DNA of 39,445 nucleotides from Thermoproteota archaeon. GTDB taxonomy: Archaea; Korarchaeota; Korarchaeia; Korarchaeales; Korarchaeaceae. A program made the position numbers and the translations under genes. Below, one piece after another: positions 24 to 39,445 of the stretch. The stretch covers positions 1 to 39,445 of the forward strand of contig JALSOH010000007.1 of assembly GCA_026986575.1 (NCBI GenBank), written 5' to 3'. The notes beneath the pieces were generated by a model, which did no database searches, was not told the DNA's origin, and saw only the letters and a list, made by a program, of their open reading frames with translations. Each line of letters begins with the position of its first letter. The stretch's first letter is position 1.

Positions 24-3000
24 GATTCTAGCCTACCTAGAAGGGATTGAAACTCCTCGGAGGATGGTGGGATCATCCTCTCCAACTCGGATTCTAGCCT
101 ACCTAGAAGGGATTGAAACCATGCATGTTTCAGCACTAAAGCACCACTTAAACAAGATTCTAGCCTACCTAGAAGGGATTGAAACAGCAAGATGCAGAGT
201 GATCTCAAGGAGGAGCTTTCCGAGATTCTAGCCTACCTAGAAGGGATTGAAACAGTCAGGGTGTCATGATGGCGTTTCAGGGCATAATGGATTCTAGCCT
301 ACCTAGAAGGGATTGAAACAATTGGTACGATGTGATGTATGGAAGGCTCTAATATGATTCTAGCCTACCTAGAAGGGATTGAAACCTGGATGACAGGTAA
401 CCCTTTCAGAATTCATGAGCGGATTCTAGCCTACCTAGAAGGGATTGAAACTATCCCGATCCCTTTATTCTAGATGACATTATCTTCGATTCTAGCCTAC
501 CTAGAAGGGATTGAAACTAGTCTCTATCATCTTGTTCCAGTTCATCTGTAATGGATTCTAGCCTACCTAGAAGGGATTGAAACTGTAGGGGTGTTCTTGA
601 TACACCAATTGAATTGCAGATTCTAGCCTACCTAGAAGGGATTGAAACTCTGAAATTCCATATTCCACCTATCAGCCTTCTTCCGATTCTAGCCTACCTA
701 GAAGGGATTGAAACTCGCTCTATCGGTATCATCACGAATTACAATCCATGGATTCTAGCCTACCTAGAAGGGATTGAAACCGAGTTGATCGATTGCTGCG
801 TCATAAGTATATCCAGGATTCTAGCCTACCTAGAAGGGATTGAAACCTAGTTTGAGCGATTCTGAGTTCCTCTGAAACCCAAGATTCTAGCCTACCTAGA
901 AGGGATTGAAACACGCGGAGGTCTACTACAGGCTGGTAGCCGAGGGAGGATTCTAGCCTACCTAGAAGGGATTGAAACTGAAGGCCCCATCATAGCGCCA
1001 GATAATGGAACAGAGATTCTAGCCTACCTAGAAGGGATTGAAACAGTTACCCGGAGGGACTACGGTAACCGATACGTTCTGATTCTAGCCTACCTAGAAG
1101 GGATTGAAACAACGATGGGGCACCGGCCGACGCTTCGTCAGTCATAGATTCTAGCCTACCTAGAAGGGATTGAAACAGTAAACGCGAGTATAAGTTTCTA
1201 GCAATGGAATACGGATTCTAGCCTACCTAGAAGGGATTGAAACAGGAGGCGCTGATCAAAGATGAGGCGCCTGATCAGGATTCTAGCCTACCTAGAAGGG
1301 ATTGAAACAGGGGGGTTCCGTGATGCCTGAGGTCGAGGAGTTGGGATTCTAGCCTACCTAGAAGGGATTGAAACCGCGTACATGCAGGTGCCCACGTTTC
1401 AGGTGATCTTGATTCTAGCCTACCTAGAAGGGATTGAAACTCCCACACGACTTCGAGTCCCCCGAACTCGTGAGCAGATTCTAGCCTACCTAGAAGGGAT
1501 TGAAACCACGGATCGGAGCCTAGGTACTTAGTTGTCTTGAGGTGATTCTAGCCTACCTAGAAGGGATTGAAACCAGTGAGAGTTGCTCGCAACCACCTCT
1601 TCGTTATCAGATTCTAGCCTACCTAGAAGGGATTGAAACAACTCAATAAATGCGAGCCATTCGCGGATGAATTTGAGATTCTAGCCTACCTAGAAGGGAT
1701 TGAAACTGCCTCGGCCTCCTCCATTCTTCCATCGACGATCCTGATTCTAGCCTACCTAGAAGGGATTGAAACTGGTACCTGTCCTCGCAGTACGCCTTCT
1801 CACTGAAGGATTCTAGCCTACCTAGAAGGGATTGAAACCGGGGAGGAGAAGATGAGCCTCCAGACAGTTGATCTAGATTCTAGCCTACCTAGAAGGGATT
1901 GAAACTGTGAAGACAGGTAAGTGCCCCAGAGGACGCAGTACGATTCTAGCCTACCTAGAAGGGATTGAAACACTGAGCTGAGAACATTGGTGGATGAGAT
2001 ACGCTGGGATTCTAGCCTACCTAGAAGGGATTGAAACATAACGAAGAGAGGCTCATCTCGTTAGATCTTGGTTGATTCTAGCCTACCTAGAAGGGATTGA
2101 AACAAACCATAAATACATCAACGAAAAACGCCGTGATAGGATTCTAGCCTACCTAGAAGGGATTGAAACTTCTACTCTCCCTATGAGGCGCTCCTCATAA
2201 CCAGGATTCTAGCCTACCTAGAAGGGATTGAAACTTCAACTACTTCAACTTCACACAACCCATCAACCTGGATTCTAGCCTACCTAGAAGGGATTGAAAC
2301 CTGATTAAAGAGTTGCTGAAGTTTCTTGCTATAACGGATTCTAGCCTACCTAGAAGGGATTGAAACTTCGCAGAGCGACTCAATAGACCTCTCTTTACTA
2401 TAGGATTCTAGCCTACCTAGAAGGGATTGAAACTAATAGATAATTTCCCAGATGAATTAGATACCGTATGATTCTAGCCTACCTAGAAGGGATTGAAACA
2501 AAGAGAAAGGCTATACCTTTGATGCCGCGCTAGAAGATTCTAGCCTACCTAGAAGGGATTGAAACTCATTACTGGCCATATGGGAGAGGTTCGGTATATC
2601 GGATTCTAGCCTACCTAGAAGGGATTGAAACATGCAGTCTCTACCAGTAGGTCTCTTACATATTCATGATTCTAGCCTACCTAGAAGGGATTGAAACCAT
2701 CCTTTACACATATCTTGAGGTCACCTTCACTGGGATTCTAGCCTACCTAGAAGGGATTGAAACTACTTCTCGAGTATACCGAGGTATCCTTCTATCAGGG
2801 ATTCTAGCCTACCTAGAAGGGATTGAAACTAGCGCGTATCACAATAGTTCTATCACTATAGTGTGGATTCTAGCCTACCTAGAAGGGATTGAAACTCCAG
2901 TATAGGCCAGTTCTCCCCATTGAATATATCAGATTCTAGCCTACCTAGAAGGGATTGAAACCGATGATCAGTAGCCTCCTGACAGCAGCCTTGACATGAT

Positions 3001-4020
3001 TCTAGCCTACCTAGAAGGGATTGAAACTTCTTCGCGACGATAGTGCTAGCCGTGGCCGTGGCGAGATTCTAGCCTACCTAGAAGGGATTGAAACCACTCC
3101 GTGGTGCAGCCCACCGACTTCAGGACAATAGGATTCTAGCCTACCTAGAAGGGATTGAAACACGCCCTTGATCCTCCCGCTGTCATCCCTCACAGCCGAT
3201 TCTAGCCTACCTAGAAGGGATTGAAACTGTGGAGGTGGTAGCATGGTGAGAAACGTTCCCAAAGATTCTAGCCTACCTAGAAGGGATTGAAACTATCCCC
3301 TAGCCCTCAGTAGCTGGGCTAGGATCTCTGATTCTAGCCTACCTAGAAGGGATTGAAACGCGATATAGTCGAGGCCTACATCCGTGGCTATATCGGATTC
3401 TAGCCTACCTAGAAGGGATTGAAACCCCCAAGGCCTTCCTGGTGATCCGAACCCTCCAGCAGGATTCTAGCCTACCTAGAAGGGATTGAAATTTTCCTGA
3501 TCTTCCCGTCCTCATACCATTCCTTCGGGATTCTAGCCTACCTAGAAGGGATTGAAATCGTTCGTGCCGGTCGGAAAGAGGTTGGTGCCGTCTTGATTCT
3601 AGCCTACCTAGAAGGGATTGAAATTCCCATAGACCTCAAAGTACTTCTCCGCCAGATCCTGATTCTAGCCTACCTAGAAGGGATTGAAATCGCTCATCGG
3701 TCCACTGAGTATCCACCAGCTCCACCGATTCTAGCCTACCTAGAAGGGATTGAAATGTAGTTTTCTCTCATCCATTCGGTGAAGCTGTCAAGGATTCTAG
3801 CCTACCTAGAAGGGATTGAAATTCCGCCGATCCTCTGCTCACCAGCCTATGCAGTACAGATTCTAGCCTACCTAGAAGGGATTGAAACAGAAGGCGGAAA
3901 CTGAGGGCCTCCCCACTCCCGAAAGATTCTAGCCTACCTAGAAGGGATTGAAACTACGCATGTGTATATCTCGGCGGGTAAGAGTATGGAGATTCTAGCC
4001 TACCTAAAAGGGATTGAAAC
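24..4020 (+). CRISPR. CRISPR array 1: 61 copies of 30-bp repeat GATTCTAGCCTACCTAGAAGGGATTGAAAC, 60 spacers of about 35-38 bp
   Basis: Repeats counted at about 66-bp period from 24 to 3991. The repeat has a TTCTAG-N5-CTAGAA hairpin and the archaeal 3' ATTGAAA(C) handle, implying + strand transcription. The last repeat (3991) is mutated (CTAAAAG) and is followed by a 36-bp spacer-like segment and a GATTCT remnant at 4057, marking the trailer end. The array may continue left of the window. Confidence 0.99.
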
Positions 4021-11942: not shown

Positions 11943-12941
11943 TCAGACTGTATCTCCGGGAAGTCCGGGTTCAATCACCGGGACCCTTACCTCCGCGGTC
12001 CTTCCATTGAATCCTAGGAGGAGGATTCCTGTGCCCTCCTCGATCCGGACCTCCACATCGACTACCTTCCTCACCTCGTACCCCTTTCCTCTTATTTTCC
12101 CTTCTCCTCCGTACTGGGGCTTGTTCACTCCAACCAAGACACCCACGACTTCAATCCCTAGAGATTCGAGGGATTCGAGCAGGGCCGCAGCGGTCCCCCC
12201 TGTGGAGAGGGCGTCATCAACCATCAGGACTTTATCGTTCTCCTTCAAACCGTAAATGCGGTAAGTCCCCTCCTCGTATCCGGATGCGTAATCCACCTCC
12301 GTACCTCTCAGGCCGAGGTCCCTCTTCCTCACCACCGCCATGGGCAGACCCGTCTTGTAGGCTATCACCGAGCCTAGGGGGAGTCCCAAGGCTTCGGGCA
12401 CTACTACCTTGTCAAGATCCCTGAAATCCAACCCCTCAAGCAGGTAATCGGTCATGAGGGACACTAGCAGGGGATCAGGTGGAGGAATAGAGTCCGTTAT
12501 CGGATTGATCACGTAGAGGTAGTCTCCCTCCACACCGATTCCGCGTCTGGGCTGCACCTTGGCGAGGGAGAAGGCCTCCAAGAGGAGTTCCCAAAGTACA
12601 TCCCACCTCGTATCGTATGGGAGCCTGTTATGGAAGCAGCTCCACCTTCCGGTGTGGCAGGTCGGACCTGAGGGAACTACCTCGTATATCACGGAGTCGA
12701 AATCACAGTCAGTCCTTATCCTCAGGACCCTGAGCACGTTCCCCGACGTTTCCCCCTTCTTCCATATCGTGTTCCTCGTCCTGCTGAAGAAATGAGCGTA
12801 TCCCGTTTCCATGGTCAGCCTGAGCGCCTCCTCGTTGGCGAAGGCCTGCATGAGTATGGTGCCATCGACGGAGCTCTTAACGATCACGGGTATGAGGCCG
12901 CCCATCTTCCCGAAGTCCAGGTCCTCTAACCCGACCATCAA
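11943..12941 (-). CDS. hisI: Phosphoribosyl-AMP cyclohydrolase fused to an APRT/Hpt-like type I phosphoribosyltransferase
   Basis: N-terminal HisI: [36 protein letters not shown]-terminal PRTase: [37 protein letters not shown]. Confidence 0.9.
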
Positions 12942-13708
12942 GGGAGCCTCACCTCCACACCCCTCTCCATCAAGTACCTCTTCAGGTCGGGGATCCTCAC
13001 CTCCCCGAAGTGAAAGACGCTGGCCGCCAGGACGGCGTCGGCCCCCGCCATTAAGGCCTCGTAGAAGTGCTCCATCCTCCCTGCACCGCCGCTCGCTATT
13101 ACCGGGATTGAGACCGCCTCAGAGACTTCCCTTATGAGGTCTAAGTCGTACCCTGTCTTCGTACCGTCCCTGTCTATGGATGTGAGGAGTATCTCTCCTG
13201 CCCCGAGATCCTCCACTCTTTTGGCCCATTTCACAACATCCATGCCGGTCGGCTCCGTTCCTCCCCTGATGTAGACCTCCCACCAGCCCCTTCCATCCCT
13301 CCTCTTCGCATCTATGGCAACCACTACACACTGGGAGCCGAAGATCCCAGCCGCTTCCCTCACTATCTCAGGCCTAATCACAGCAGCCGTGTTCACCGAT
13401 ACTTTGTCCGCCCCGGCCCTGAGGAGGGAGAAGAAATCATCCACCGATCTAACCCCGCCACCCACGGTGAAGGGTATGGAGAGGCTCCCCGCTACCTCCC
13501 TCACCAGTTGGAGCAGGGTCCCCCTCCCCTCAAGGCTGGCGGATATGTCGAGGAAAACGAGCTCGTCAGCTCCCTCCTCATCGTATATCTTGGCTTGAGA
13601 GACAGGATCCCCAGCATCCCTCAGGTTAACGAAGCTGATCCCCTTAACCACCCTCCCTCCCCTGACATCGAGGCATGGAATGATCCTCTTTGCGGTCAAA
13701 TCTCCCAC
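12938..13708 (-). CDS. hisF: Imidazole glycerol phosphate synthase cyclase subunit
   Basis: [60 protein letters not shown]. Confidence 0.97.
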
Positions 13709-14388
13709 CCCATCCCCCTGATCTCTCCCAAGAGGCCCTCGTAGAGTGCTCTCCCCACCACCGCCCCGGAGAAACCCCCGTCCCTGAGCAGCTCCAAGTC
13801 CTTTATGGATCCCACTCCGCCAGCATACACGATCTCCAGCCGGTTGAATGCTCTGGGCAGATGGAGCAGCTTCCGATCTGGTCCGGACAATGTACCATCA
13901 GCCCCTATCCCGGTGACTAGGAAGCTCTCCACACCTAGGGAGGATAACCGCCTCATGGCTTCCTCAACGGTGACAGGTAGCTCCTCCTTCCATCCCCTCA
14001 CCCTGACCCTCCCACCGTAACTATCGATCGCCACAACTATGGGTCCGAGCTCAAGGCCTCTCTCTATGGACTCCGGTTTAGAAAAGGCCATGGTGGAGAC
14101 CACCGGGATCGCTCCCCAGGAGAGGACCTCCTCAATCCTCTCTAGGCTCCTGATCCCTCCCCCGACCTGCGGGACAATCCCCGTATCAGATGCCCGCTCC
14201 ACCAGAGTCCTCACCATATCGTAGTTTCTCCCTTCACCCATGGCAGCGTCTAGGTCCACTATATGGATCCTTTTGGCTCCTAGGAACCTATCCAGCCAAT
14301 ATAGCGGGTCCCCGTAGTCTAAAATGACGCCTCTAGCTAGCCTGACCGCCCTTCCACCCATCAGGTCTATAGCAGGTATGACCATCAT
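13696..14388 (-). CDS. hisA: ProFAR isomerase
   Basis: [51 protein letters not shown]. Confidence 0.93.
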
Positions 14389-14948
14389 CAGCGCCTCGCC
14401 TCCTTCAGGAAGTTGGAGAGCACCTCCCTCCCAAGCCTCCCGGACTTCTCAGGATGGAACTGGGTGCCAAAGAGGCTTCCCTTCTCTATTATGGCTGGGA
14501 CGTCCACCCCGTATCTGACGATTCCCCTTACTACGTCCTCTCTAGGCACGGCGTAGTATGAGTGGGCGAAGTAGAAGTAGCCGGTTCCCTCGAAAATCCT
14601 GCTCCATCCCCTAACGAGGCTCCATCCCATGTGCGGAGCCTTCATGCCCCTCGGGAGCCTAACAATCTCGCCCCTCATGAGGCCGAGACCGGGAAGCGAG
14701 CCCTCCTCGCTCCTCTCGAAGAGGAGCTGCATACCGAGGCATATGCCCAGTGTAGGGGTTCTCTCGGCGAGAGCGTCCCGCAGGTGGCCAGCCCTCTCCA
14801 GAGCCCCATCGTAGCTGCCCACCCCCGGCAGGATCAGGGCATCGTAGTCCTCCTCGACTATTTCCGCTCCCAGATCCCTCAGCGCTTTGGTCACACTGAA
14901 CACGTTGCCCACCCCATAGTCGAAGATCCTAACCCTCAACGTCCACAA
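14388..14948 (-). CDS. hisH: Imidazole glycerol phosphate synthase glutaminase subunit
   Basis: DYGVGNV, LPGVG, LGICLGMQLL, PHMGW, YFAHSY, QFHPEKS; start may be a few codons later. Confidence 0.96.
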   Translation of the reverse strand: MWTLRVRIFDYGVGNVFSVTKALRDLGAEIVEEDYDALILPGVGSYDGALERAGHLRDALAERTPTLGICLGMQLLFERSEEGSLPGLGLMRGEIVRLPRGMKAPHMGWSLVRGWSRIFEGTGYFYFAHSYYAVPREDVVRGIVRYGVDVPAIIEKGSLFGTQFHPEKSGRLGREVLSNFLKEARR

Positions 14949-15495
14949 CCCCCTTGGTGCTCCTGAGCTCAGGAGAGGGACCCATCGCCTGGGCTAGCGA
15001 TAGAGCCAAGGACTTGTAGGTCGCCTCCACGGCGTGATGTAGGTTTCCCGCCCTGATGGCTATAACGTGGATCGTCGCCAGCGACCCCCTAGCTAGGGCC
15101 TCTATCCCGTGCATCAGGTCATCCACCGCCAGTCCCTCGACCTGGCCCCCCTCGAGATTGCAGGAGAAGTGGGCTCTCCCACCCAAGTCAACGGAGGTCA
15201 TGACAAGGGATTCATCCATCGGTATCGCGGACCACCCGAACCTCGCTATGCCCCTCCTATCCCCCAGTTCCCTGGAGATGGCCCTCCCCAGGAGGAAGAG
15301 GAGGTCCTCTAAGAGGTGGTGGGCCAGATCCCACTCGGCCTTGACCTCCAAATCGATACCCGAATGGAAGACCAGCTGCTCCAGCATGTGATCGAAGAAA
15401 GGGAGACCGGTCCTCCCCTCGAGGGAGCCGGTACCCCTCAACTCCAGCCTCAGCCTTATCCTGGTCTCGGCGCTCTCCCTGCTCACCTCTATCAT
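14929..15495 (-). CDS. hisB: Imidazoleglycerol-phosphate dehydratase
   Basis: TGLPFFDHML, HHLLED, PMDESL, NLHHAVEA, STKG; ATG 15495 overlaps the hisC stop. Confidence 0.95.
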   Translation of the reverse strand: MIEVSRESAETRIRLRLELRGTGSLEGRTGLPFFDHMLEQLVFHSGIDLEVKAEWDLAHHLLEDLLFLLGRAISRELGDRRGIARFGWSAIPMDESLVMTSVDLGGRAHFSCNLEGGQVEGLAVDDLMHGIEALARGSLATIHVIAIRAGNLHHAVEATYKSLALSLAQAMGPSPELRSTKGVVDVEG

Positions 15496-16436
15496 GGGAT
15501 CACCTCGAGTTCCTCTAACAGGCCGTCCATCACCTCCCATGGGACTAGAGTGATCCTGATACCCCTGGCTCCAGGCCTATCCACGAGCCTCACCGCGAAC
15601 CCCCTAGCCCTCAGGCGCTCCCAAGCTTCCCTGCCCAGCGACTTTATGAAGACGAAGTTCGTGGAGGAGTCGGGCACCTCGAATCCAATGGCCCTGAGCC
15701 TGCCTGTTAGTCTCTCTCTGACCCTCTCGACCTCCTTCACGGACTCGTGGACCAGACCACTCATTTCCAAGGCCCTGATGGCCATGGCCTCTGAGGGCGC
15801 TGACACCTGATAGGGGAGGGATCTCCCCTTAGCCAGCGTCACGACCTCCTCGGGAGAGATGGCGTACCCGACCCTCAGTCCCGCCAACCCCCACGCCTTG
15901 GAAAAGGTCCTCACAACGGTGAGCGTCTCGTCCACGTCCCTCAGGAAACCCTCCGACCCTGAAAACTCCACATAGGCCTCGTCAACCACCACGTGGCCGA
16001 TGGATCTCAGCTCCTCCACGAAACCTCGAGAGTAAGAGAGGCCCGTGGGATTGTTGGGAGTGTTGACTATTATGAGGTCGCATTCGGCCAGCGGGTCGAT
16101 ATCCGGGTAGACGGAGGATCTCACCTCCTTGCCCATAGATCTAGCCAAGTGTTCGTACATTGAGTAGGCTGGCTCGACTATACCGACCCTATCCGCTCCG
16201 GATATAAGCATCCTCAGAACATCATCGGCCCCGGCCCCCGGGAGGACCGAGCCTTCATCAACATTCAGGAATGAAGAGAGGGCCTCGACCAGGCGATCGG
16301 CCCAGGGAGTCGGGTAGAACCTGATGAGGTTCATCTCGACGACCTTAATCAGCTCCTCGTAGTAGGTGGAGGGAAGGAAGAGGTTCTCGTTGTAGAAGAG
16401 CCTTTCTCCCCCCTCGTAGATGGGGATAAGCTCCAT
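15492..16436 (-). CDS. hisC: Histidinol-phosphate aminotransferase
   Basis: PNNPTG, VVDEAYVEF, RTFSKAWGLAGLRVGY; operon context. Confidence 0.92.
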   Translation of the reverse strand: MELIPIYEGGERLFYNENLFLPSTYYEELIKVVEMNLIRFYPTPWADRLVEALSSFLNVDEGSVLPGAGADDVLRMLISGADRVGIVEPAYSMYEHLARSMGKEVRSSVYPDIDPLAECDLIIVNTPNNPTGLSYSRGFVEELRSIGHVVVDEAYVEFSGSEGFLRDVDETLTVVRTFSKAWGLAGLRVGYAISPEEVVTLAKGRSLPYQVSAPSEAMAIRALEMSGLVHESVKEVERVRERLTGRLRAIGFEVPDSSTNFVFIKSLGREAWERLRARGFAVRLVDRPGARGIRITLVPWEVMDGLLEELEVIP

Positions 16437-17410
16437 CAGCTCTCACCTATCCCCTCCACATCCTCCAGCAGAAGGACCTGCCTTGGATCGGTCACCACAA
16501 GTCCCTGGGCAAGTCTTCTAAGCCTAGGGAGTAGCTCCAGCAGTTTTCCCCTCTCCAAGACCGTGTTGACCGCGAACCACCCTTCTTCGGAGAGCTTGGA
16601 TATGGTCGGACCCTTCAAGGCAGGGAGTATGGAGATCAGTTCCTCGAGATTATCCTCCCTTACGTTGAGGAATATGTGAACCCTCCTCCTCGCGTACACG
16701 ACACCTCTGAAGAGAGCGTATATGTCCTTTATCCTCTCAAGCTTGTCCTCGTCCCTAAGAGAATCCTTGTTCGCTATTAGCACCGCGCTGCTCTCGCATA
16801 CCTCCTCAACGACCCTCAAACCGTTCTGAGCTAGGGTAGTCCCCGTGGCTGTGTTATCTATTATCGCGTCGGCATCCTCCGGCGGCTTCGCCTCGGTTGC
16901 CCCGAAGGAGAGGATGAGCCTGAACCTCTCGTTCCCCTCCACCCTGTACCACGGTGTTATTACAGTTGGGGGTCGGTCGTAGACCTCCTTGTAGCTTGGC
17001 CTGCTGGATACCCATTCCGACGCCAAATTGAGGTACTCGGTGGAGATACTCACCGGTCTCTCCATTGAGAGATTCACCAGGTCGTCTAGGGAGCTTATTT
17101 CAGAATTTACCGGTGCTGCTAGGACGAGTCTCACTTTCCCGTAATCCAAGTCAAGCAGTTCCCTGACATCGGCCCTGTTCTCCCTGACCCAATCCCTTCC
17201 AGCTATCCCCAGGTCGTAGGTCCCCTCCTGAACTAAGACCGGTATCTCCTGCGGCCTGAGTATCTTCACGCTGAGGTCGGGGTAATCGACCTTAGGCCTG
17301 TAAGATCTCGAGGCACCGTATATATTTATTCCAGATTGCCTGATGAAGGAAAAGGTGTCCTCCTCCAAGGAGCCCTTTGGAATGGCCATCCTAACGGTGA
17401 ACGGGATCAC
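16436..17410 (-). CDS. hisG: ATP phosphoribosyltransferase, long form
   Basis: MAIPKGSL, LRPQEIP, DLGIAGRDW, SFGATEAKPPEDADAIID, TGTTL, C-terminal regulatory domain LPALKGPTIS. Confidence 0.96.
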   Translation of the reverse strand: MIPFTVRMAIPKGSLEEDTFSFIRQSGINIYGASRSYRPKVDYPDLSVKILRPQEIPVLVQEGTYDLGIAGRDWVRENRADVRELLDLDYGKVRLVLAAPVNSEISSLDDLVNLSMERPVSISTEYLNLASEWVSSRPSYKEVYDRPPTVITPWYRVEGNERFRLILSFGATEAKPPEDADAIIDNTATGTTLAQNGLRVVEEVCESSAVLIANKDSLRDEDKLERIKDIYALFRGVVYARRRVHIFLNVREDNLEELISILPALKGPTISKLSEEGWFAVNTVLERGKLLELLPRLRRLAQGLVVTDPRQVLLLEDVEGIGES

Positions 17411-21437: not shown

Positions 21438-22049
21438 ATGGAACGACACTATACAATGAGAGAAGCTGCTAAGATCCTGGGCGTCTCAGTCAGAACGATC
21501 CAGCGATGGGATAAATCGGGAAAGATCAGGTGTATCCGCACTCCTGGAGGGAAAAGACGTGTTCCGGAGTCGGAGATAAGGAGGATACTCGGCCTGAGTG
21601 AGGAGCGAGTTGTGGTGGGCTACGCCAGGGTCTCCTCTAGATCGCAGAGGGACGACCTGGAGAGGCAGGTTCAGGCCATAAGGGAATACGCGAGCCAGCG
21701 GGGCTACGAGCTTGCCGAGGTGTTAACTGACGTCGGCTCTGGCCTGAACGAGCGGCGTAGAGGCTACCTGAGGCTGCTGGAAATGGTAGCTGAGCGCAGG
21801 GTCAGCAGGGTGATAGTCACTTACCCGGACAGGCTGACCAGGTTCGGCTTCTCGACGCTAAAATTCCTCTTCCAGGCGTTCGGCGCTGAGATAGAGGTGA
21901 TCAACGCCAGGGAGATGACGCCGAGGGAGGAGTTGGTGGAAGATCTCATAGCGATAGTCACGTCGTTCGCCAGCAGGCTCTACGGTAGGAGGAGCCACAG
22001 GTACAGGAGGCTCGTTCAGGGGGTGAGAAAGCTTGTCTCGGAGGAGTGA
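21438..22049 (+). CDS. tnpA: IS607 serine-recombinase transposase
   Basis: N-terminal MerR-like HTH ([28 protein letters not shown]), YARVSS catalytic Ser, [28 protein letters not shown]. Confidence 0.96.
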
Positions 22050-23193
22050 GGTTATCAAGAGCTATGCTGTGCCCGTAAAGGCTCCCAAAGACCTCATAGA
22101 TGCCTACCTAGAGGTCAAGAGGAAGGCGCTGGAGGCTGTGATAGCTTACGTATCCTACAGCAAGGGGAAGGCCAGGCTCCGGCTAAAAGCCGAGGAGAGG
22201 CGCGAGATCAGGAGTGAGCTGCTCAAGGATTGGCCGTACGCGAGCCACTACATCGACTCCGCCATCAACTCAGTCATAGGCCTAGTGAAGGGTTGGATAA
22301 AGCTCTACAACAGGGGTAAGGCGAAGAGACCACCGGAGATAACGAGGAGGATGGTCTACATCAAGAGCACGCTGTTCAGGATCAAGGAGAACAAGCTGAT
22401 CATCAGGATAGTAGCCAGGAGGCGCTACCTGGAGGTGGACCTGTCGAGGTTCGACTACCTGCCCAGGGACTACGACTCTATTGGGGGCCTGCTGCTAACA
22501 GATGACAGGCTCTACATCACATTCAAGCGCTCCTCCGAGCCTAAGGAAGTCAGGGGGTGGTCCGCATTCGACGTTAACGAGGCCAACGTGACGGAGGCGA
22601 GGGACGGATTCGGAGTGATCAGATACGACCTCAGAGAACTCTACCACATCCACAGGGTCTACGAGGAGAAGCGCCGGAGGATGCAGGCGCTCAGGAGGAC
22701 CCACCCTAAGCGCTCTAGGAGGCTCATGGAGAAGTATGGCAGGCGGGAACGCAATAGGGCCAGGGACTTCCTCCACAAGCTGACCACCGGGATAGTCAGG
22801 GAGCTGGCCGCGCTGAACTACGGGATCATCTTGGAGGATCTGAGCGGCATAAAGGAGAGGACTGCCAGGAGAGGGAGGGCAAGCAGGAGGATCAGGCGGA
22901 GGCTCAGCAAGTGGGACGCCCGCACGCTTCAGTCCATGCTGGCCTACAAGGCCAGGTGGCTGAGCCTTCCCGTGCGATTCGTGAACCCCGCCTACTCCTC
23001 CAGGACCTGCCCCGTGTGCTCAGCGCCTCTGAAGGCCTATCGGGGCAGGCTCATGCGGTGCGAGGGCTGCGGGCTGATCATCGACAGAGACGAAGCTGCA
23101 GCCCTCAACCTTCGGATGCGGGGCGCCCGGGGTTCCCCCGAGAGGGGCGGATCTACGGAGATGTGCCCAAGGGAGGCGTATGTCCACAAATGA
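22033..23193 (+). CDS. tnpB: RNA-guided endonuclease TnpB
   Basis: RuvC-I AFDVNE, RuvC-II IILEDL, Zn ribbon SRTCPVC..CEGC, Ruv[14 protein letters not shown]. Confidence 0.93.
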
Positions 23194-33999: not shown

Positions 34000-35963
34000 A
34001 TGTCCCACGTCCTAGTCCACGTGGCTGGGGACACCCTGCTGAGGGGATCGAGGAAACTCTACGAGGTTAGGGCGCCTGGACGAAAATCCATTCGGTTGAG
34101 GGCTTCATCCACCGCACTGCCCGTCTCCATGGAGGCGCTGGGCAGGGGGAAGGCCGACCCGGGCAAGCTCAAGATGATCGTTCCCCTCCCCCACTCCCTC
34201 GTAACCCACGCCGAGAAGTTTTGGAGGCTCCCAAGGATGGGGGAAGGAGTGGAGGAGTGGATCCTAGACGCGACCCGGAGACTAGTGGTCGAATTCCCGA
34301 GGCTACTCGTCAAGGACGTGAATGAGGAGTTACCGGGGGACTTCGGAGGCCTGCTTGACGGCTCTCCTCTATCTTGGCTAGGGTGGTCCAAGTCAGGGGC
34401 ACCTTCACCCTGCCTCTGGAGGACGGGACTGGCGTGAGGCTCAAATTCGAGAGAGGCGGGCCCTCCCACATATTCGCCGAGGTTTACCGATCTCTTAGGG
34501 AACTGGGAGATGTGGAGAGGGTGGTCTTCGATCTGAGTCAGGGGTGGAATCACCTGACCGTAATGGCCTACATAGGAGCACTGGCGTACGCTGAGGTGAA
34601 CTGGGTGAATCTGATCCCCCTGACCTCAATGCCCGTGTTGGTCCCATCGGGTAGACCCCCCACGAGGACACGCCCAAGCCCTGATCCATACCAGGAGGGG
34701 TTAGCAGGGGCAGCAGGCCGAGCCGTCGAGCTCCCAGTGGATTTCATGGATGTCGAGGAGGCTCAGGTGATTCACGGACTTGTTGTAACTATATCGAAGT
34801 TGCTGGCCCACAGCAGACTTAGCCCCGGCATGATAGCGGATATATGGGAGAATGTAGTGAGGAGGGAGTTCGATCGATACGGAAACCTAGAGAAGGGTAA
34901 GGAGCTCCTGAAATCCCTGATCAGGCTCAGGAAGGTCTCTTGCGCGCTCGATACCACCATGCTAACCTACCTGCATCACGCTTTGAGGAGCTTCAGCGAA
35001 TCCCTCCATTCTATTCGCGAGATGCTCAATTACCTCAAGGAGAGGATGGATAGAGGGGACTACGTGGAGCGCCTGAAGCCGAATCCGGATGCCTTCGCTG
35101 AGGGCTTTGATGAGATCGTGATAGAATACGAGCTTGAGCCTCCCCTGTCCTATCCGCTGGCGGATTCAGTGAGCTCCTTCGCCCTCAAGATAGGGATCGA
35201 TACGTTGAATCATCACTTGAGGAGGGATCACGCGTCCCTGAGGTTCGCTCAGGAGGTCAGGTCCCTCTACCGCTCGTTGGGCATGCACCCGAACGAGGTC
35301 TTGATAGCTAGAGAGCTAGCTATGATCGATAGGAGCGGCAACCTCAGAAGCGTAAACTGCATGGTGAGGGAGGCGCCGGGAGGCACAGCCTTGGGCTACA
35401 TGAGGTCGTACATCGAGGAAATGGCCTGCGAGATGGTTAAAAAGAGGATCAGAGGATCGGTCGCCTCCGTCCGTGATGTTTACCCGTTCGCGATTCTGGG
35501 CAGGAGGTGCCCGGATGTCGTGAGGGACGCCTATAGAGAGACCAGTAAGTTCGATAGGAGCTCAACCTTGGTGGATCTCCATGAGGAGAGCCTGAAATGG
35601 GAAATCTTCAGGACTAAAGCGGTAGATTTGATGGAAAACTCTTCGTGCAAGGACGATTGGTGGGTCAGGAACTTCCTCTCGGCGGATAAACTGATGAGGG
35701 GAAGAGACGCGGTCAGCCCGGAGGAGGTCTCTTCACTCCTCAGGAACCTTGCCGTCCATGTTGGCCTCCAGCACTTCTCCGTGAGGAATCTAGTGCCCGT
35801 CCTCGATCGTGGCGGCGTGATCGAGGATGTGGAGATCCACTATTACCATGAGCTCTTCGAGGGGCTGGAAGATCTGGCCAGTGGGAAGTTGAGGGGAAGG
35901 TTGGATGGGATGCCCGAGGACCTCATCAGGGAGATCGGGTGTCTATGCGATGTAGGGATCTGA
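34000..35963 (+). pseudogene. csx1: Csx1-like CARF-HEPN ribonuclease split by one frameshift (about 654 aa if repaired)
   Basis: ORF 34000 carries the CARF start (VLVHVAGD..YEV..LPHSL). ORF 34374 continues with VFDLSQGWNH (DxTHG variant) and HEPN RNLAVH (RX4H). One added base at about 34359 joins them (LLD-RLSSILARVV). Confidence 0.8.
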
Positions 35964-36306: not shown

Positions 36307-37068
36307 TCACTCCACAGCCTCCCTCATGGCCTCTCCTATAGCCCTACCCAGGTCTGTGGGTATGATCCTGCCTCCGGATACCTGTATAAGGCCTGAGAAC
36401 CTGAGGGCAGCTATGTAGTCTTCCCCAAGATCCTCAAGTTCCGACCTGCTGCCTCCCTCGCTGAGGATCCCCGCCACCCTCCTGACTATCGAATAAGGCA
36501 GTGGAAGCATGGGTATCCTCATCACGCTGTAGGTCAAGGGGGGATACATGAGGATCTGCAGCTCCCTATTCTCCCTGTAGTAACTGAGAGGATCGTCCGA
36601 TGAGGCGAGTTCCTCTATCTTCGGTCTCAGCCTCTCTAGCTCGATGTTAACCACCCTCACATCTGGCACGACCACATGGTAGATACCGGATACCGCAAGC
36701 ACCTGCCCCAGAAGGGCCACCTCCACCGAGACGCTCTTCCTCCCCCCTGAAATGAGTAGGTAGACTGGCTTCTCCAGTCCAGCTATCTCTGAAGCCGCTA
36801 TTCTCATGAAATCGAAGGCCACGTTCTCATTAACGATGTCCTCGTAGTCCAGAGTAAGGCTAACCACCTTGGCCTTGGGATACCTGTCCTTCACGGCTGC
36901 CTCAACTAGCCTGGCGCCTTCCTGAACGCGTTTGTCCTTTGTAAGGATCAGTTCCACGGTTTTTGGCTTCATGTTGTACTGCCAGTCCAGGTACTGGATC
37001 AGCTCTGTAACGATGGGTGGGCTCAGGCCGAGAGGGGCTAGCAGGGAGTAATCACTGAAGTAACGCAT
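36307..37068 (-). CDS. CARF + winged-helix protein, Csx14/Crn1 (Sso2081-like) ring-nuclease family
   Basis: LAPLGLSPPIVTE, LILTKD, YEDI, LLISGGRKSV, IYHV; C-terminal wHTH-like LRFSGLIQVSGGRIIPTDLG. Confidence 0.8.
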   Translation of the reverse strand: MRYFSDYSLLAPLGLSPPIVTELIQYLDWQYNMKPKTVELILTKDKRVQEGARLVEAAVKDRYPKAKVVSLTLDYEDIVNENVAFDFMRIAASEIAGLEKPVYLLISGGRKSVSVEVALLGQVLAVSGIYHVVVPDVRVVNIELERLRPKIEELASSDDPLSYYRENRELQILMYPPLTYSVMRIPMLPLPYSIVRRVAGILSEGGSRSELEDLGEDYIAALRFSGLIQVSGGRIIPTDLGRAIGEAMREAVE

Positions 37069-37375: not shown

Positions 37376-38131
37376 ATGGCGGAGACTCACGTGATCACAT
37401 GCGGCATCAGTCTCCTCATGAACACTATCAGGTCGACTGAGGAGGACATTCTCTCCTCGATACCAGAAGAAAAGCTCCGCGAACTCTCCAACCCCAGAAG
37501 TCTATCAGAAGCACTAAAGTCCCTCACTGGAGACGAGAGGAGGGCTCTCGAGGAGGCGATGCTCTCCAACCTGAGAAGGGATCCGAGGAGAGCCAGCGCT
37601 GAGATGAATGCCTTCCTCGGGTATATAAACGAGTACTCCACGGAGGTTAGGGATCTACACCTCTTAGTCTCCGACACCGACGCCGGGAAGCTAGTAGCGA
37701 AGATTCTCGACGAATACCTTACAGAGAGTGGGTACAACGTCTCCAAGCATGTGGTCGCTGGCTTCGGCTCCGAGGACTTCGACGCTGCTCTCAAGGAGCT
37801 GAAGGAGGTGGTGGGATCCATAGTGGGGAGATCGGGCGATGTGGTCCTCAACCTCACCGGTGGATTCAAGGCGGAGATAGCCGCATTATCGGTTCTTGCC
37901 GCTGAAAGCGGTCTCAGAGCGTACTACATACATGAGGCCGCCAAGAAGATCGTGATCTTGCCGACGGCCAGCCAGCTGAAGGTGAAGGTTACCAAGTGGG
38001 AGAAGGCCCTAGCCATCCTCACGGCCATCCTGAGCTTCCCGATCGACTCGTTACTCGGCTTCCCCCTCTTCGTAGTAGCTGAAATTGCAATATTCGTGCC
38101 GACCCTCTGGATAATACTGAAGAAGGCCTGA
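37376..38131 (+). CDS. APE2256/Sso1393-family CARF protein with C-terminal hydrophobic (about 2 TM) hairpin
   Basis: VITCGISLLMN, SAEMNA, LLVSDTDAG, LNLTGGFKAE, YYIHE, then ALAILTAILSFPIDSLLGFPLFVVAEIAIFVPTLWIILKKA. Confidence 0.85.
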   Translation: MAETHVITCGISLLMNTIRSTEEDILSSIPEEKLRELSNPRSLSEALKSLTGDERRALEEAMLSNLRRDPRRASAEMNAFLGYINEYSTEVRDLHLLVSDTDAGKLVAKILDEYLTESGYNVSKHVVAGFGSEDFDAALKELKEVVGSIVGRSGDVVLNLTGGFKAEIAALSVLAAESGLRAYYIHEAAKKIVILPTASQLKVKVTKWEKALAILTAILSFPIDSLLGFPLFVVAEIAIFVPTLWIILKKA

Positions 38132-38259
38132 AGAGATAACTGGTGAGCAAGCGCTGCGTGATACTGAGAGTTTGCCGTCACCCTCGGTCAAGAGAGCGTT
38201 CCGAAGGTGGAACTGGAGGATGCCTCGCGCGGAATGCGAGAAAATGATACAATTTGTTC

Positions 38260-38405
38260 CTTTCAACTCCCTTTTCGGGATTCTTGTGCCTTTAAATAAC
38301 CATTTCTGATAAGGTCTGTTAGAACTTTCAACTCCCTTTTCGGGATTCAGGACGTCCACGTCAAACCTAGCGAACATGTTACTTTCAACTCCCTTTTCGG
38401 GATTC
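38260..38405 (-). CRISPR. Mini CRISPR array 2: three identical 24-bp repeats GAATCCCGAAAAGGGAGTTGAAAG, spacers of 33 and 41 bp
   Basis: CTTTCAACTCCCTTTTCGGGATTC at 38260, 38325 and 38382 on +; the TTGAAAG 3' end indicates - strand. Confidence 0.92.
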
Positions 38406-38769: not shown

Positions 38770-39135
38770 CCTATTGCAGGAGAAGGGAAGCTCAAGAGGG
38801 CGTCGAAAGGGAAGGACATTAATGCACCAACTACCGCCTTCTCGTGCCTGAAGAGTCGGATCTTAGGTCCCATCTCCGGCAGGAGCTTCACCACCTCTTG
38901 AGTCCCTCGTGTATGTAGCAGGCATTCAAGTCGCTTCCAACAGCGATGGCACCCATGGCTGCCTCCTCCGTTTGAGGCCGTCCGTCAGGTCCAGTTTGAA
39001 CTCTCCCTTCTCAGGCTTACTATCCTCCTCAGGAGTTTCTTTATCCTGTTTCACCGCTCATTTGTGGTTCTGGGAATCGAATCCAAGGTCCTTCCTAATC
39101 TCCACTCCATCTTCGCCCATCAGCCCTGTCCATGT
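38770..39135 (-). pseudogene. Decayed paralogue of the CARF-TM gene (37376..38131)
   Basis: Minus-strand fragments GFDSQN, LDLTDGLK, LNACYIHE and VVKLLP..KIRLFRHEKAVVGALMSFPFDALLSFP align with GFGSED, LNLTGGFK, LRAYYIHE and IVILP..KVKVTKWEKALAILTAILSFPIDSLLGFP; contains stops and frameshifts. Confidence 0.75.
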
Positions 39136-39188
39136 CGACTACGGACCCTCGGGAAAGAATTTATTACCCTCATTCCTATCTTTACTCG

Positions 39189-39445
39189 ATGTCTCTAATA
39201 GAGGAACTCTCGAAAGAGCTTGAGGCACATCCCGAACTTGCCAAGAGTATAGCTAAGAAGCTAATCGAGTATATAGAGCCAGAGCTAAGTCTGGCCTATC
39301 AGATTTCCAAAATGGTCGATCAGATAACCAAATTCGTCGAAGAGCAGACCAAGATCTGGCAGGAGATCAAGGCGATCAAGGAGGAGATCCAGAAGATATG
39401 GGAGGAGATAAAGGAGCTGAAGGAGGAGCAGACGAGGCTGAAGGA
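39189..39445 (+). CDS. Coiled-coil heptad-repeat protein, truncated by the window end (archaeal DUF3782/PD-(D/E)XK-associated type)
   Basis: MSLIEELSKELEAHPELAK...EEQTKIWQEIKAIKEEIQKIWEEIKELKEEQTRLK. Confidence 0.7.
   Translation, partial: MSLIEELSKELEAHPELAKSIAKKLIEYIEPELSLAYQISKMVDQITKFVEEQTKIWQEIKAIKEEIQKIWEEIKELKEEQTRLK

Follow-up and report, generated by a model that had tools for sequence, protein, structure and literature searches.

A Crn1-type CARF protein of Korarchaeia with a conserved C-terminal hydrophobic tail, a candidate membrane-inserted sensor of cyclic tetra-adenylate

What does a CARF domain of the ring-nuclease type do when it ends in a hydrophobic segment where its relatives carry a soluble domain? 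The question is raised by a 251-residue protein encoded at positions 37376..38131 (forward strand, ATG start) of contig JALSOH010000007.1, from assembly GCA_026986575.1 of a Thermoproteota archaeon placed in the Korarchaeia; the window that we analysed is this entire contig of 39,445 bases. The protein joins a CARF domain of the CARF7/Crn1-long type to a C-terminal hydrophobic tail, an assignment made from the Pfam family PF09651, a profile search of the PDB and a Foldseek comparison. A preliminary description of the DNA had offered two interpretations, a self-limiting effector gated by cyclic tetra-adenylate (cA4) and a membrane-tethered ring nuclease, and these remain the two leading readings. 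The best reading, which we hold tentatively and just short of an even chance, is a membrane-inserted cA4 sensor-effector whose own CARF domain also turns it off, by cleaving the activator; a tethered ring nuclease is a serious but less probable alternative. Common to both is a CARF dimer anchored in the membrane that binds cA4 and probably cleaves it; the difference lies only in whether the tail has an output.

The CARF domain and its hydrophobic tail

The CARF domain occupies residues 1-197 (37376..37966, forward strand), with a helical insert at about residues 17-68 and the residues S12 and K165, as judged from alignment to 7pq2 and 7pq6, from invariant columns and from an AlphaFold2 (AF2) model. 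The open reading frame (ORF) lies where it had been placed and holds every CARF motif previously quoted from it: CGISLL (residues 9-14), SAEMN (74-78), SDTDAG (99-104), NLTGGFKAE (159-167) and YIHE (184-187). Pfam Cas_APE2256 (PF09651) matches residues 71-197 with an E value of 3.4e-29 (101.9 bits against a cut-off of 24.8), and TIGR02619 matches the protein at 3e-23; the NCBIfam Crn1 equivalog NF040951 scores 38.4 bits, below its cut-off of 600. A profile search of the whole genome returned no second APE2256 gene, and scans against Pfam and NCBIfam matched no HTH, WHD or RelE family in the protein. The closest solved relatives in the PDB profile search were Sis0811 (7pq2, 9.4e-37), Sso1393 (3qyf, 2.1e-34) and Cami1 (8phb, 2.1e-19), with all of the alignments stopping at about residue 204. 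When the AF2 model was submitted to Foldseek, the Sis0811 and Sso1393 entries ranked first, followed by Cami1 (about 1e-7), and Cam1 (8t66) was distant (E 1.6e-3). The two comparisons bear out the APE2256/Sso1393-type identity first proposed for this domain.

Conservation of the ligand pocket could be followed residue by residue from Sis0811. The Sis0811 residues with assigned roles are S12, N16, D75, T98, T100, S103, K169, Y189 and Y191 (PMC8643638), and the PDB titles of its entries name the mutants S12A and S12G/K169G. Manual mapping placed these nine residues onto S12, N16, N78, S99, T101, G104, K165, Y184 and H186, respectively, K165 thus being the counterpart of K169. Seven of the nine mapped positions are invariant in an alignment of 22 sequences of the clade, and N16 and S99 are conserved at 90% or more (in the 22-sequence and a 29-sequence alignment, respectively); the invariant columns among the 22 sequences are G10, S12, N78, T101, G104, K165, Y184 and H186. 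The catalytic pair of Crn1, a serine (S11/S12) and a lysine (K168/K169), is therefore present as the invariant S12 and K165. Since the mapped positions are invariant or at least 90% conserved, the pocket looks competent for both cA4 binding and cA4 cleavage. The sensor appears to be intact and of the cA4-specific type, and we infer that cA4 is its ligand.

Two further segments follow the CARF domain. The first is a linker, residues 198-210 (ASQLKVKVTKWEK; 37967..38005, forward strand), which is the most conserved segment of the protein across the 22 sequences. The second is the hydrophobic tail, residues 211-251 (38006..38128, forward strand), delineated by hydropathy, conservation, the AF2 model and substitution rates; it consists of helix 1 (to about residue 221), the motif P222-x-D224-S225-x-L-G228-x-P230 and helix 2 (residues 231-250, with W245 and the terminal KK), and the protein ends in ...LWIILKKA. 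Kyte-Doolittle averages over 19-residue windows reach 1.6 or more only at window starts 211-233, and windows starting at 210-233 are the only ones with a favourable Wimley-White octanol free energy. By both scans, residues of about 211-249 form the sole stretch of transmembrane (TM) grade, in agreement with the hydrophobic C-terminus of about 40 residues, ending in KK, of the preliminary description. The AF2 model, made with 22 homologues, has a predicted local distance difference test score (pLDDT) of 87.5 and a predicted template modelling score (pTM) of 0.74, and places the helices after the CARF domain at residues 207-219, 223-227 and 231-250, which makes a hairpin plausible. A topology with both ends of the hairpin in the cytoplasm (N-in/C-in) would fit, because Lys and Trp residues flank both of its ends (KWEK ... 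W..LKK).

If the tail were a chance extension, it should not be kept among homologues, and a search for homologues that retain it had been set beforehand as a check. A word-indexed search returned 32 homologues, Korarchaeota by source name where they are named at all, of which 29 were aligned and three fragments were left out; a homologous hydrophobic tail is present in 22 of the 29. When residues 196-251 alone were used as the query, with shared 5-mers required, only the protein itself and P0002 were recovered among 19 candidates. Synonymous divergence (dS) is unsaturated in three orthologue pairs; in these, the ratio of nonsynonymous to synonymous substitution rates (dN/dS, Nei-Gojobori) of residues 211-251 is 0.135, 0.239 and 0.202, and that of the CARF part, in the same order, 0.273, 0.125 and 0.134. 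Because it is kept in most homologues and shows dN/dS of 0.135-0.239, the tail is not a chance extension and is under purifying selection. The constraint also exceeds mere hydrophobicity, as it includes a position-specific motif and a highly conserved linker. The linker has a mean top-residue fraction of 0.73, compared with 0.67 for the CARF core, and holds L201 (22/22), K202 (21/22) and E209 (21/22). In the tail, conservation is concentrated at L219 (20/22), P222 (19/22), D224 and S225 (17/22 each), L227 (17/20), G228 (16/20) and W245 (19/22). A conserved tail motif had been anticipated and is there, though P-x-D-S-x-L-G-x-P describes it better than SFPxDxLL.

How did this combination of domains arise? 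A HMMER search of 1.84 billion representative sequences found 591 relatives at E values of 1e-3 or below; among the best 150 of these, the alignments beyond about ten representatives end at residue 197-200 or so. Hydropathy screens of all retrieved proteins showed C-terminal TM-grade segments to be almost confined to one clade. In a FastTree phylogeny built on the CARF part alone (92 rows; proteins below 200 or above 420 residues and identifiers above P0100 left out), all tail-bearers fall in a single clade of 25 rows (SH-like support 94), nested among soluble relatives. Two proteins inside it, P0018 and P0025, have tails under the hydropathy cut-off, and one long-branch protein outside it, P0077, also has a hydrophobic C-terminal segment. 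As the tail-bearers form one clade in a CARF-only tree, the fusion of CARF domain and tail arose once. The earlier statement that relatives normally have soluble C-termini is likewise sustained: outside this clade no C-terminal TM segment was seen among the retrieved relatives, with P0077 as the sole exception. The long Crn1 proteins Sso1393 and Sis0811 share with the korarchaeal protein the Pfam family and fold, the catalytic Ser and Lys and most of the cA4 contacts, but they end in a winged helix-turn-helix (wHTH) domain where it has a hydrophobic tail of about 41 residues.

What is new is thus a clade, of single origin and centred on the Korarchaeia, whose members have a conserved two-helix hydrophobic tail in place of the soluble domain that ends long Crn1. 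In the literature searched, which did not extend to the 2020 CARF census and its supplements, no account of a Crn1-type CARF ending in a TM tail was found; that census, by Makarova et al., or its supplements may list CARF7+TM architectures already. Ten of 40 genomes from the class have the gene (9 of 23 among those of high quality), and the copy in one of them, G007, is degraded, with four in-match stops (one TGA, two TAG and one TAA; L045, G007:C62 7212-7715). This patchy distribution is as for a defence gene.

Neighbouring genes and genomic context

The gene had at first been treated in isolation, whereas it actually stands in a conserved trio with a Csx1-like gene and a gene for a Sso2081-like short ring nuclease, a context that makes a plain ring-nuclease reading stronger than the preliminary description allowed. 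The short ring-nuclease candidate is a Csx14/Cas_NE0113 protein of 253 residues with a C-terminal extension (36307..37068, reverse strand), divergently transcribed from the CARF-tail gene. It matches PF09623 (2.8e-16), TIGR03642 (8.5e-22) and cas_Crn1 (1.1e-7), and it aligns to Sso2081 (7ygh) at 1e-6 with the GxSP and GGRKS motifs kept, which in Sso2081 hold Ser11 and Gly104, Arg105 and Lys106, respectively (PMC10018336). Csx14 has been treated as part of the Crn1 family, and Crn1 falls in CARF7 and CARF_m13 (PMC12409355).

The third member of the trio is a Csx1-like ('TM1812 family') CARF gene (34000..35960, forward strand) that lies in two frames, at 34000-34437 and 34374-35960, and was recognised by homology to the 656-residue protein P0180. 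The first frame, of 145 residues, is 64% identical to residues 1-118 of P0180 (E 3e-45), and the second, of 529 residues, aligns to P0180 along its entire length (100%) with 69% identity; a further homologue, P0181, has the source name 'TM1812 family CRISPR-associated protein'. The Csx1_CARF match on P0180 is sub-threshold (9.2e-4). In a comparison of a low-confidence structural model of P0180 (pLDDT 48.7) by VIA-align, Csx1 4eog (Z 11.6), 2i71 (Z 11.1) and Csm6 6o6s (Z 11.0) came ahead of the first unrelated row (8.9). Near the C-terminus stands RNLAVHVG, which we take to be the R-N-x3-H motif of a Csx1-like HEPN domain, here a candidate only. Family searches of the whole genome gave no Csx1_HEPN, Card1_endonuc or Csx1_CARF match. 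Elsewhere in the genome, an ORF fragment with RNLTAHAG (G000:C4:874416-875414, G000 being the genome of the window) is 44% identical to the Csx1-like C-terminus over 89 aligned positions, and probably represents either a gene remnant or a HEPN-like piece that stands alone.

The frame of the Csx1-like gene changes directly after a run of five G. As a contig from an independent run spans 34185-34441 with zero differences and zero gaps, the frameshift is probably real in this population. In a long contig of the same run, the Csx14-like and CARF-tail genes are free of indels. Among the substitutions listed, there are at least nine in the Csx14-like gene, all of them synonymous, at least three in the CARF-tail gene, giving I84M and V91I, and at least 11 in the Csx1-like fragment, with five amino-acid changes.

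Related genomes show how far this arrangement is kept. In the closest relative (G028; 89% identical), the same trio occurs with an intact Csx1-like frame of 665 residues (G028:C61:2593-4557). The degraded copy in G007 is flanked by a Csx14 gene and by a Cas10-HD/RAMP operon, which also encodes a Csm6-like CARF-HEPN protein. In the near-complete genome G033 the gene lies at the edge of a type I and III-B super-locus and adjoins a multi-wHTH protein, in G030 it lies between a coiled-coil gene and a type I operon, and in G010 and G014 it is divergent from a gene of another Csx1 lineage (TIGR01897 at 2.6e-7, ending in RHFRAHAG). BLASTP found no significant similarity between the 529-residue ORF of the window and the Csx1-like neighbour at locus L022, and by sequence comparison the two Csx1-like proteins belong to different lineages. 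The DNA available around the gene in G025, G031 and G009 holds no cas neighbour. Multi-wHTH proteins of about 510 residues occur in two cas loci (L007:7485-9029, on G000:C10, and L044:5699-7222, in G033) and are 36% identical to each other; the one in the Cmr locus, of 515 residues, was considered as a hidden Csx1 and dropped, as it gives only HTH signals and neither CARF nor HEPN.

Co-occurrence was counted over the 40 genomes, and the counts are descriptive only, since kin are not independent. NE0113 is found in six of the ten carriers (one below the family cut-off) and in nine of the 30 non-carriers, with a short ring nuclease directly beside the CARF-tail gene in three of the ten; a Csx1-like gene found with P0180 as the query occurs in four of the ten carriers and seven of the 30 non-carriers. 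No partner gene appears in more than three of the ten carrier loci. The gene is CRISPR-associated, and it has no obligatory partner.

Downstream, the contig ends in the 5' part of a coiled-coil gene (39132..39443, forward strand) that runs off the contig. Its homologue of 238 residues, L023:9096-9809, lies directly upstream of the CARF-tail gene in another genome (57% identity over 91 residues, E 7e-29) and gives a weak PD-(D/E)xK signal (PDDEXK_10, E 0.024, under the cut-off). This gene raises a third explanation, in which the protein would sense cA4 at the membrane and act through a partner, for example the coiled-coil/PD-(D/E)xK-like protein, or would serve as a cA4 sponge. The coiled-coil gene with its weak nuclease signal is adjacent in two of the ten carriers (G000 and G030), the multi-wHTH protein is on the same contig in two of the ten (G033 and G030), and a tail of about 41 residues is small for an autonomous pore. 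Yet no gene recurs as a partner in more than three of the ten loci, the PD-(D/E)xK match is below threshold, and small size is no bar, as Cam1 works with a single TM helix of 24 residues (PMC10808066); we consider this explanation unlikely.

Between the CARF-tail and coiled-coil genes, directly 3' of the former, lies a mini CRISPR array of three repeats (38259..38405; repeat family D3) with a repeat of 24-25 nucleotides (nt) and spacers of 40 and 32 nt; this repeat type has three copies genome-wide, all of them here. In one contig of run X2, position 38283 is followed directly by 38383 and the 99 nt between them are absent; this could represent a shorter variant of the mini-array, a weak indication with only 25 letters on its shorter side. 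The DNA of the coiled-coil gene itself holds 21-nt tandem-like repeats (family D2). At the other end of the window, a CRISPR array with 61 copies of a 30-nt repeat ending ATTGAAAC (24-4020) is cut by the contig start, and no other contig of the assembly has its repeat. An IS607-like pair at 21438-23193 consists of a serine resolvase with a MerR-type helix-turn-helix (203 residues) overlapping a TnpB/Cas12f-like OrfB (386 residues). A histidine biosynthesis operon at 11943-17410 (reverse strand) encodes HisG, an aminotransferase, imidazoleglycerol-phosphate dehydratase, a HisH-like glutamine amidotransferase, HisA/HisF and phosphoribosyl-AMP cyclohydrolase, and its presence argues that the contig is chromosomal and not a mobile element.

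A cA4 sensor also needs a source of its signal. Two type III-B Cmr modules lie on other contigs of the genome, one a complete Cmr1-6 set and the second cut by contig ends. Their Cas10 genes (G000:C10:14326-17667 and G000:C3:3-1928, outside the window) both keep the N-terminal HD dipeptide, and Cmr2_B is split across two contig ends. At the active site, where the reference Cas10 reads GGDD, Cmr2_A reads AGDE and Cmr2_B reads GGDQ; AGDE is among the Cas10 variants seen in effector-bearing loci (Hoikkala et al. 2024, PMC11229360). A source of cyclic oligoadenylate (cOA) in the genome is plausible, because two Cmr modules are present and AGDE is known from such loci.

Effector or anchored ring nuclease

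In the reading that we favour, we infer membrane insertion, the topology, a membrane-perturbing output and self-cleavage, which could be arranged as follows. Cmr complexes encoded elsewhere in the genome would make cA4 upon target-RNA recognition, and a dimer of the cytoplasmic Crn1-type CARF domains would bind it. The ligand-induced closure known for this CARF type would be relayed through the linker (residues 198-210) to helices 211-250, which would cross the membrane as a tight hairpin (N-in/C-in) whose outer tip lies close to the conserved Asp-Ser. If these helices then re-pack or oligomerise, they may perturb the membrane, by leak or depolarisation, and arrest growth. The same CARF pocket would cleave cA4 through S12 and K165, and the protein would reset. 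It would act alongside the Csx1-like RNase and the Csx14-type short ring nuclease encoded next to it.

We favour an output for the tail because of the conserved tail and linker motifs, the precedents among effectors, the conserved Asp-Ser, as in Cam1, and the association with a short ring nuclease. In Cam1, a single N-terminal TM helix precedes a C-terminal CARF domain that binds cA4 as a dimer, and a conserved and essential Asp of the hydrophobic helix lines the predicted pore (PMC10808066). Both proteins combine a CARF domain with a minimal TM module, lack an enzymatic effector domain and have a conserved Asp in the hydrophobic segment (here Asp-Ser), but the domain order is opposite and the CARF domains are only distantly similar; the available parts of that study report neither ring-nuclease residues nor activity for Cam1. 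Csx23 and Cap1 are tetramers that bind one cA4 per tetramer (bioRxiv 10.1101/2025.11.13.688252). The logic proposed here is common to them, with a type III signal passed to a small TM domain and on to membrane depolarisation, though both have TM helices at the N-terminus and sensors other than canonical CARF7. A sensor that limits itself is established for this CARF clade, because in Cami1 (CARF7-RelE) the CARF domain both senses and degrades cA4 (bioRxiv 10.64898/2026.10.26.761840); Cami1 is of the same CARF lineage, but its output is a RelE-type ribosome-dependent RNase where the korarchaeal protein has a membrane segment.

The strongest competitor, plausible although we rate it lower, is a membrane-anchored Crn1-type ring nuclease, in which the CARF dimer would degrade cA4 and reset Csx1-type effectors and the tail would tether the protein without toxic output, for example by limiting its reach or dosage or by replacing the auto-inhibitory wHTH of long Crn1. 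The closest solved relatives are ring nucleases, the pair S12 and K165 is invariant, and Csx1-type genes are adjacent in four of the ten carriers (frameshifted in G000, intact in G028, and in G010 and G014), which is the usual place of an off-switch. Furthermore, the wHTH of the long form is reported to be auto-inhibitory (PMC10018336), so that a C-terminal modulator could be exchanged. An anchor, however, accounts neither for the position-specific P-x-D-S-x-L-G-x-P motif nor for a linker that exceeds the catalytic domain in conservation. It would also place a second ring nuclease beside one of the Csx14 type; such redundancy predicts avoidance, as more than one ring-nuclease type occurs in only 10 of 242 loci that have any (PMC12409355), yet the association with NE0113 is positive, the reverse of that prediction. 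No characterised membrane-tethered ring nuclease was found in the literature searched, and the proteins of characterised function in which a cOA sensor is joined to a small TM domain, namely Cam1, Csx23, Cap1 and the type II CARF-TM protein of Panoptes, are all effectors in the texts available.

Several observations nevertheless weigh against an output and for the anchor. The simplest call from homology would be a long Crn1 with a different tail, because the catalytic pair is invariant and the trio parallels a known set: Sulfolobales carry Csx1, the short ring nuclease Sso2081 and the long ring nuclease Sso1393. Co-existence of a long and a short ring nuclease in one genome is documented (PMC9638899, PMC10018336), the pair being that of S. 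islandicus in the former. Among the Csx15 ring nucleases, small groups carry fused TM helices (bioRxiv 10.64898/2026.10.26.761840), so a tethered ring nuclease is not absurd. The last helix of the tail evolves as expected of an anchor, variable save for W245. The helices show no significant amphipathic periodicity either, the observed hydrophobic moment being reached by 868, 2605 and 4413 of 5000 permutations; non-amphipathic helices fit membrane-spanning segments and lend no support to a polar stripe lining a pore, and the idea of such a stripe was dropped. The linkage to type III systems is loose, because a Cas10 palm (palm-2) is present in only six of the ten carriers compared with 14 of the 30 non-carriers, the four carriers that lack it being metagenome-assembled genomes of 80-96% completeness; several carrier loci have housekeeping neighbours. 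In the source genome, the GGDQ of Cmr2_B has lost the second acidic residue. Lastly, the argument that the protein is the only candidate cOA effector of its genome is ruled out by the frameshifted Csx1-like gene 1.4 kb upstream, and another effector may be encoded by an 815-residue ORF between the two Cmr modules (G000:C10:2939-5386), which matches no family and weakly resembles (E 4.2e-4) the HEPN-like C-terminus of the Csx1-like protein.

The domain order itself has a precedent, which the preliminary description missed in taking the reversed architecture to be uncharacterised. The type II CARF-TM protein of Panoptes (2026), modelled as a dimer, begins with a cytoplasmic CARF domain and ends in a TM domain that starts near residue 212; this TM domain, which L212stop removes, is essential for toxicity. 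Its gene and that of the cyclase mCpol form an operon of two genes, and the protein, a cA3 binder, is toxic without its ligand (PMC13577387). The order of domains is the same here (CARF 1-197, helices 211-250), but the korarchaeal gene has no mCpol beside it, a type III/I CRISPR-Cas context, a pocket like that of cA4-cleaving proteins and an archaeal host. Could the protein, then, be a guard of the Panoptes kind, held inactive by a constitutive cyclic oligoadenylate and toxic once a virus depletes that signal? The TM segment starts at about residue 211-212 in both, and the second-nearest look-alike in the Atlas is a mostly cyanobacterial cluster of 255-residue Cas_APE2256 proteins (score 0.89, a lead only). 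Against this, a genome-wide search for the palm-2 domain PF22335 at E values up to 0.1 found only the two Cas10s and no mCpol-like gene, though a very divergent mCpol could escape it, and no neighbour is a cyclase. The CARF domain keeps the ring-nuclease residues, which would destroy the holding signal, and its ligand contacts match those of the cA4-binding Sis0811 and not those of a cA3 binder. We therefore regard a guard function as very improbable.

Significance of the fusion

Given this characterised bacterial precedent for the domain order, the protein is less surprising than it first seemed, and it remains a clean and testable example of where ring nucleases meet effectors. In either case the clade is compact and clearly delimited, with about 25 representatives and a single origin. 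Should the protein be no more than an anchored ring nuclease, the question becomes why the removal of cA4 is localised to the membrane. If the tail has an output, the family would bridge ring nucleases (off-switches) and CARF effectors (weapons), categories that have been kept apart, and would offer a minimal system of 251 residues for coupling cA4 to the membrane and for self-termination. It would do so in hyperthermophilic archaea, whose membranes are unlike those used to study Cam1, Cap1 and the CARF-TM protein of Panoptes.

The fullest form of the proposal, to which we give somewhat less credence than to the sensor-effector reading in general, is a 'timer pore', in which one CARF dimer would open a two-helix membrane module on binding cA4 and close it by cleaving the ligand. 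This would be the first archaeal membrane effector gated by cOA, and the first with a bona fide Crn1-type sensor. Together with the Csx1-like RNase and the Csx14 short ring nuclease, it would make up a circuit of two effectors and two off-switches. If this is true, the wHTH of long Crn1 would be an exchangeable output domain, and ring nucleases and effectors would form one continuum.

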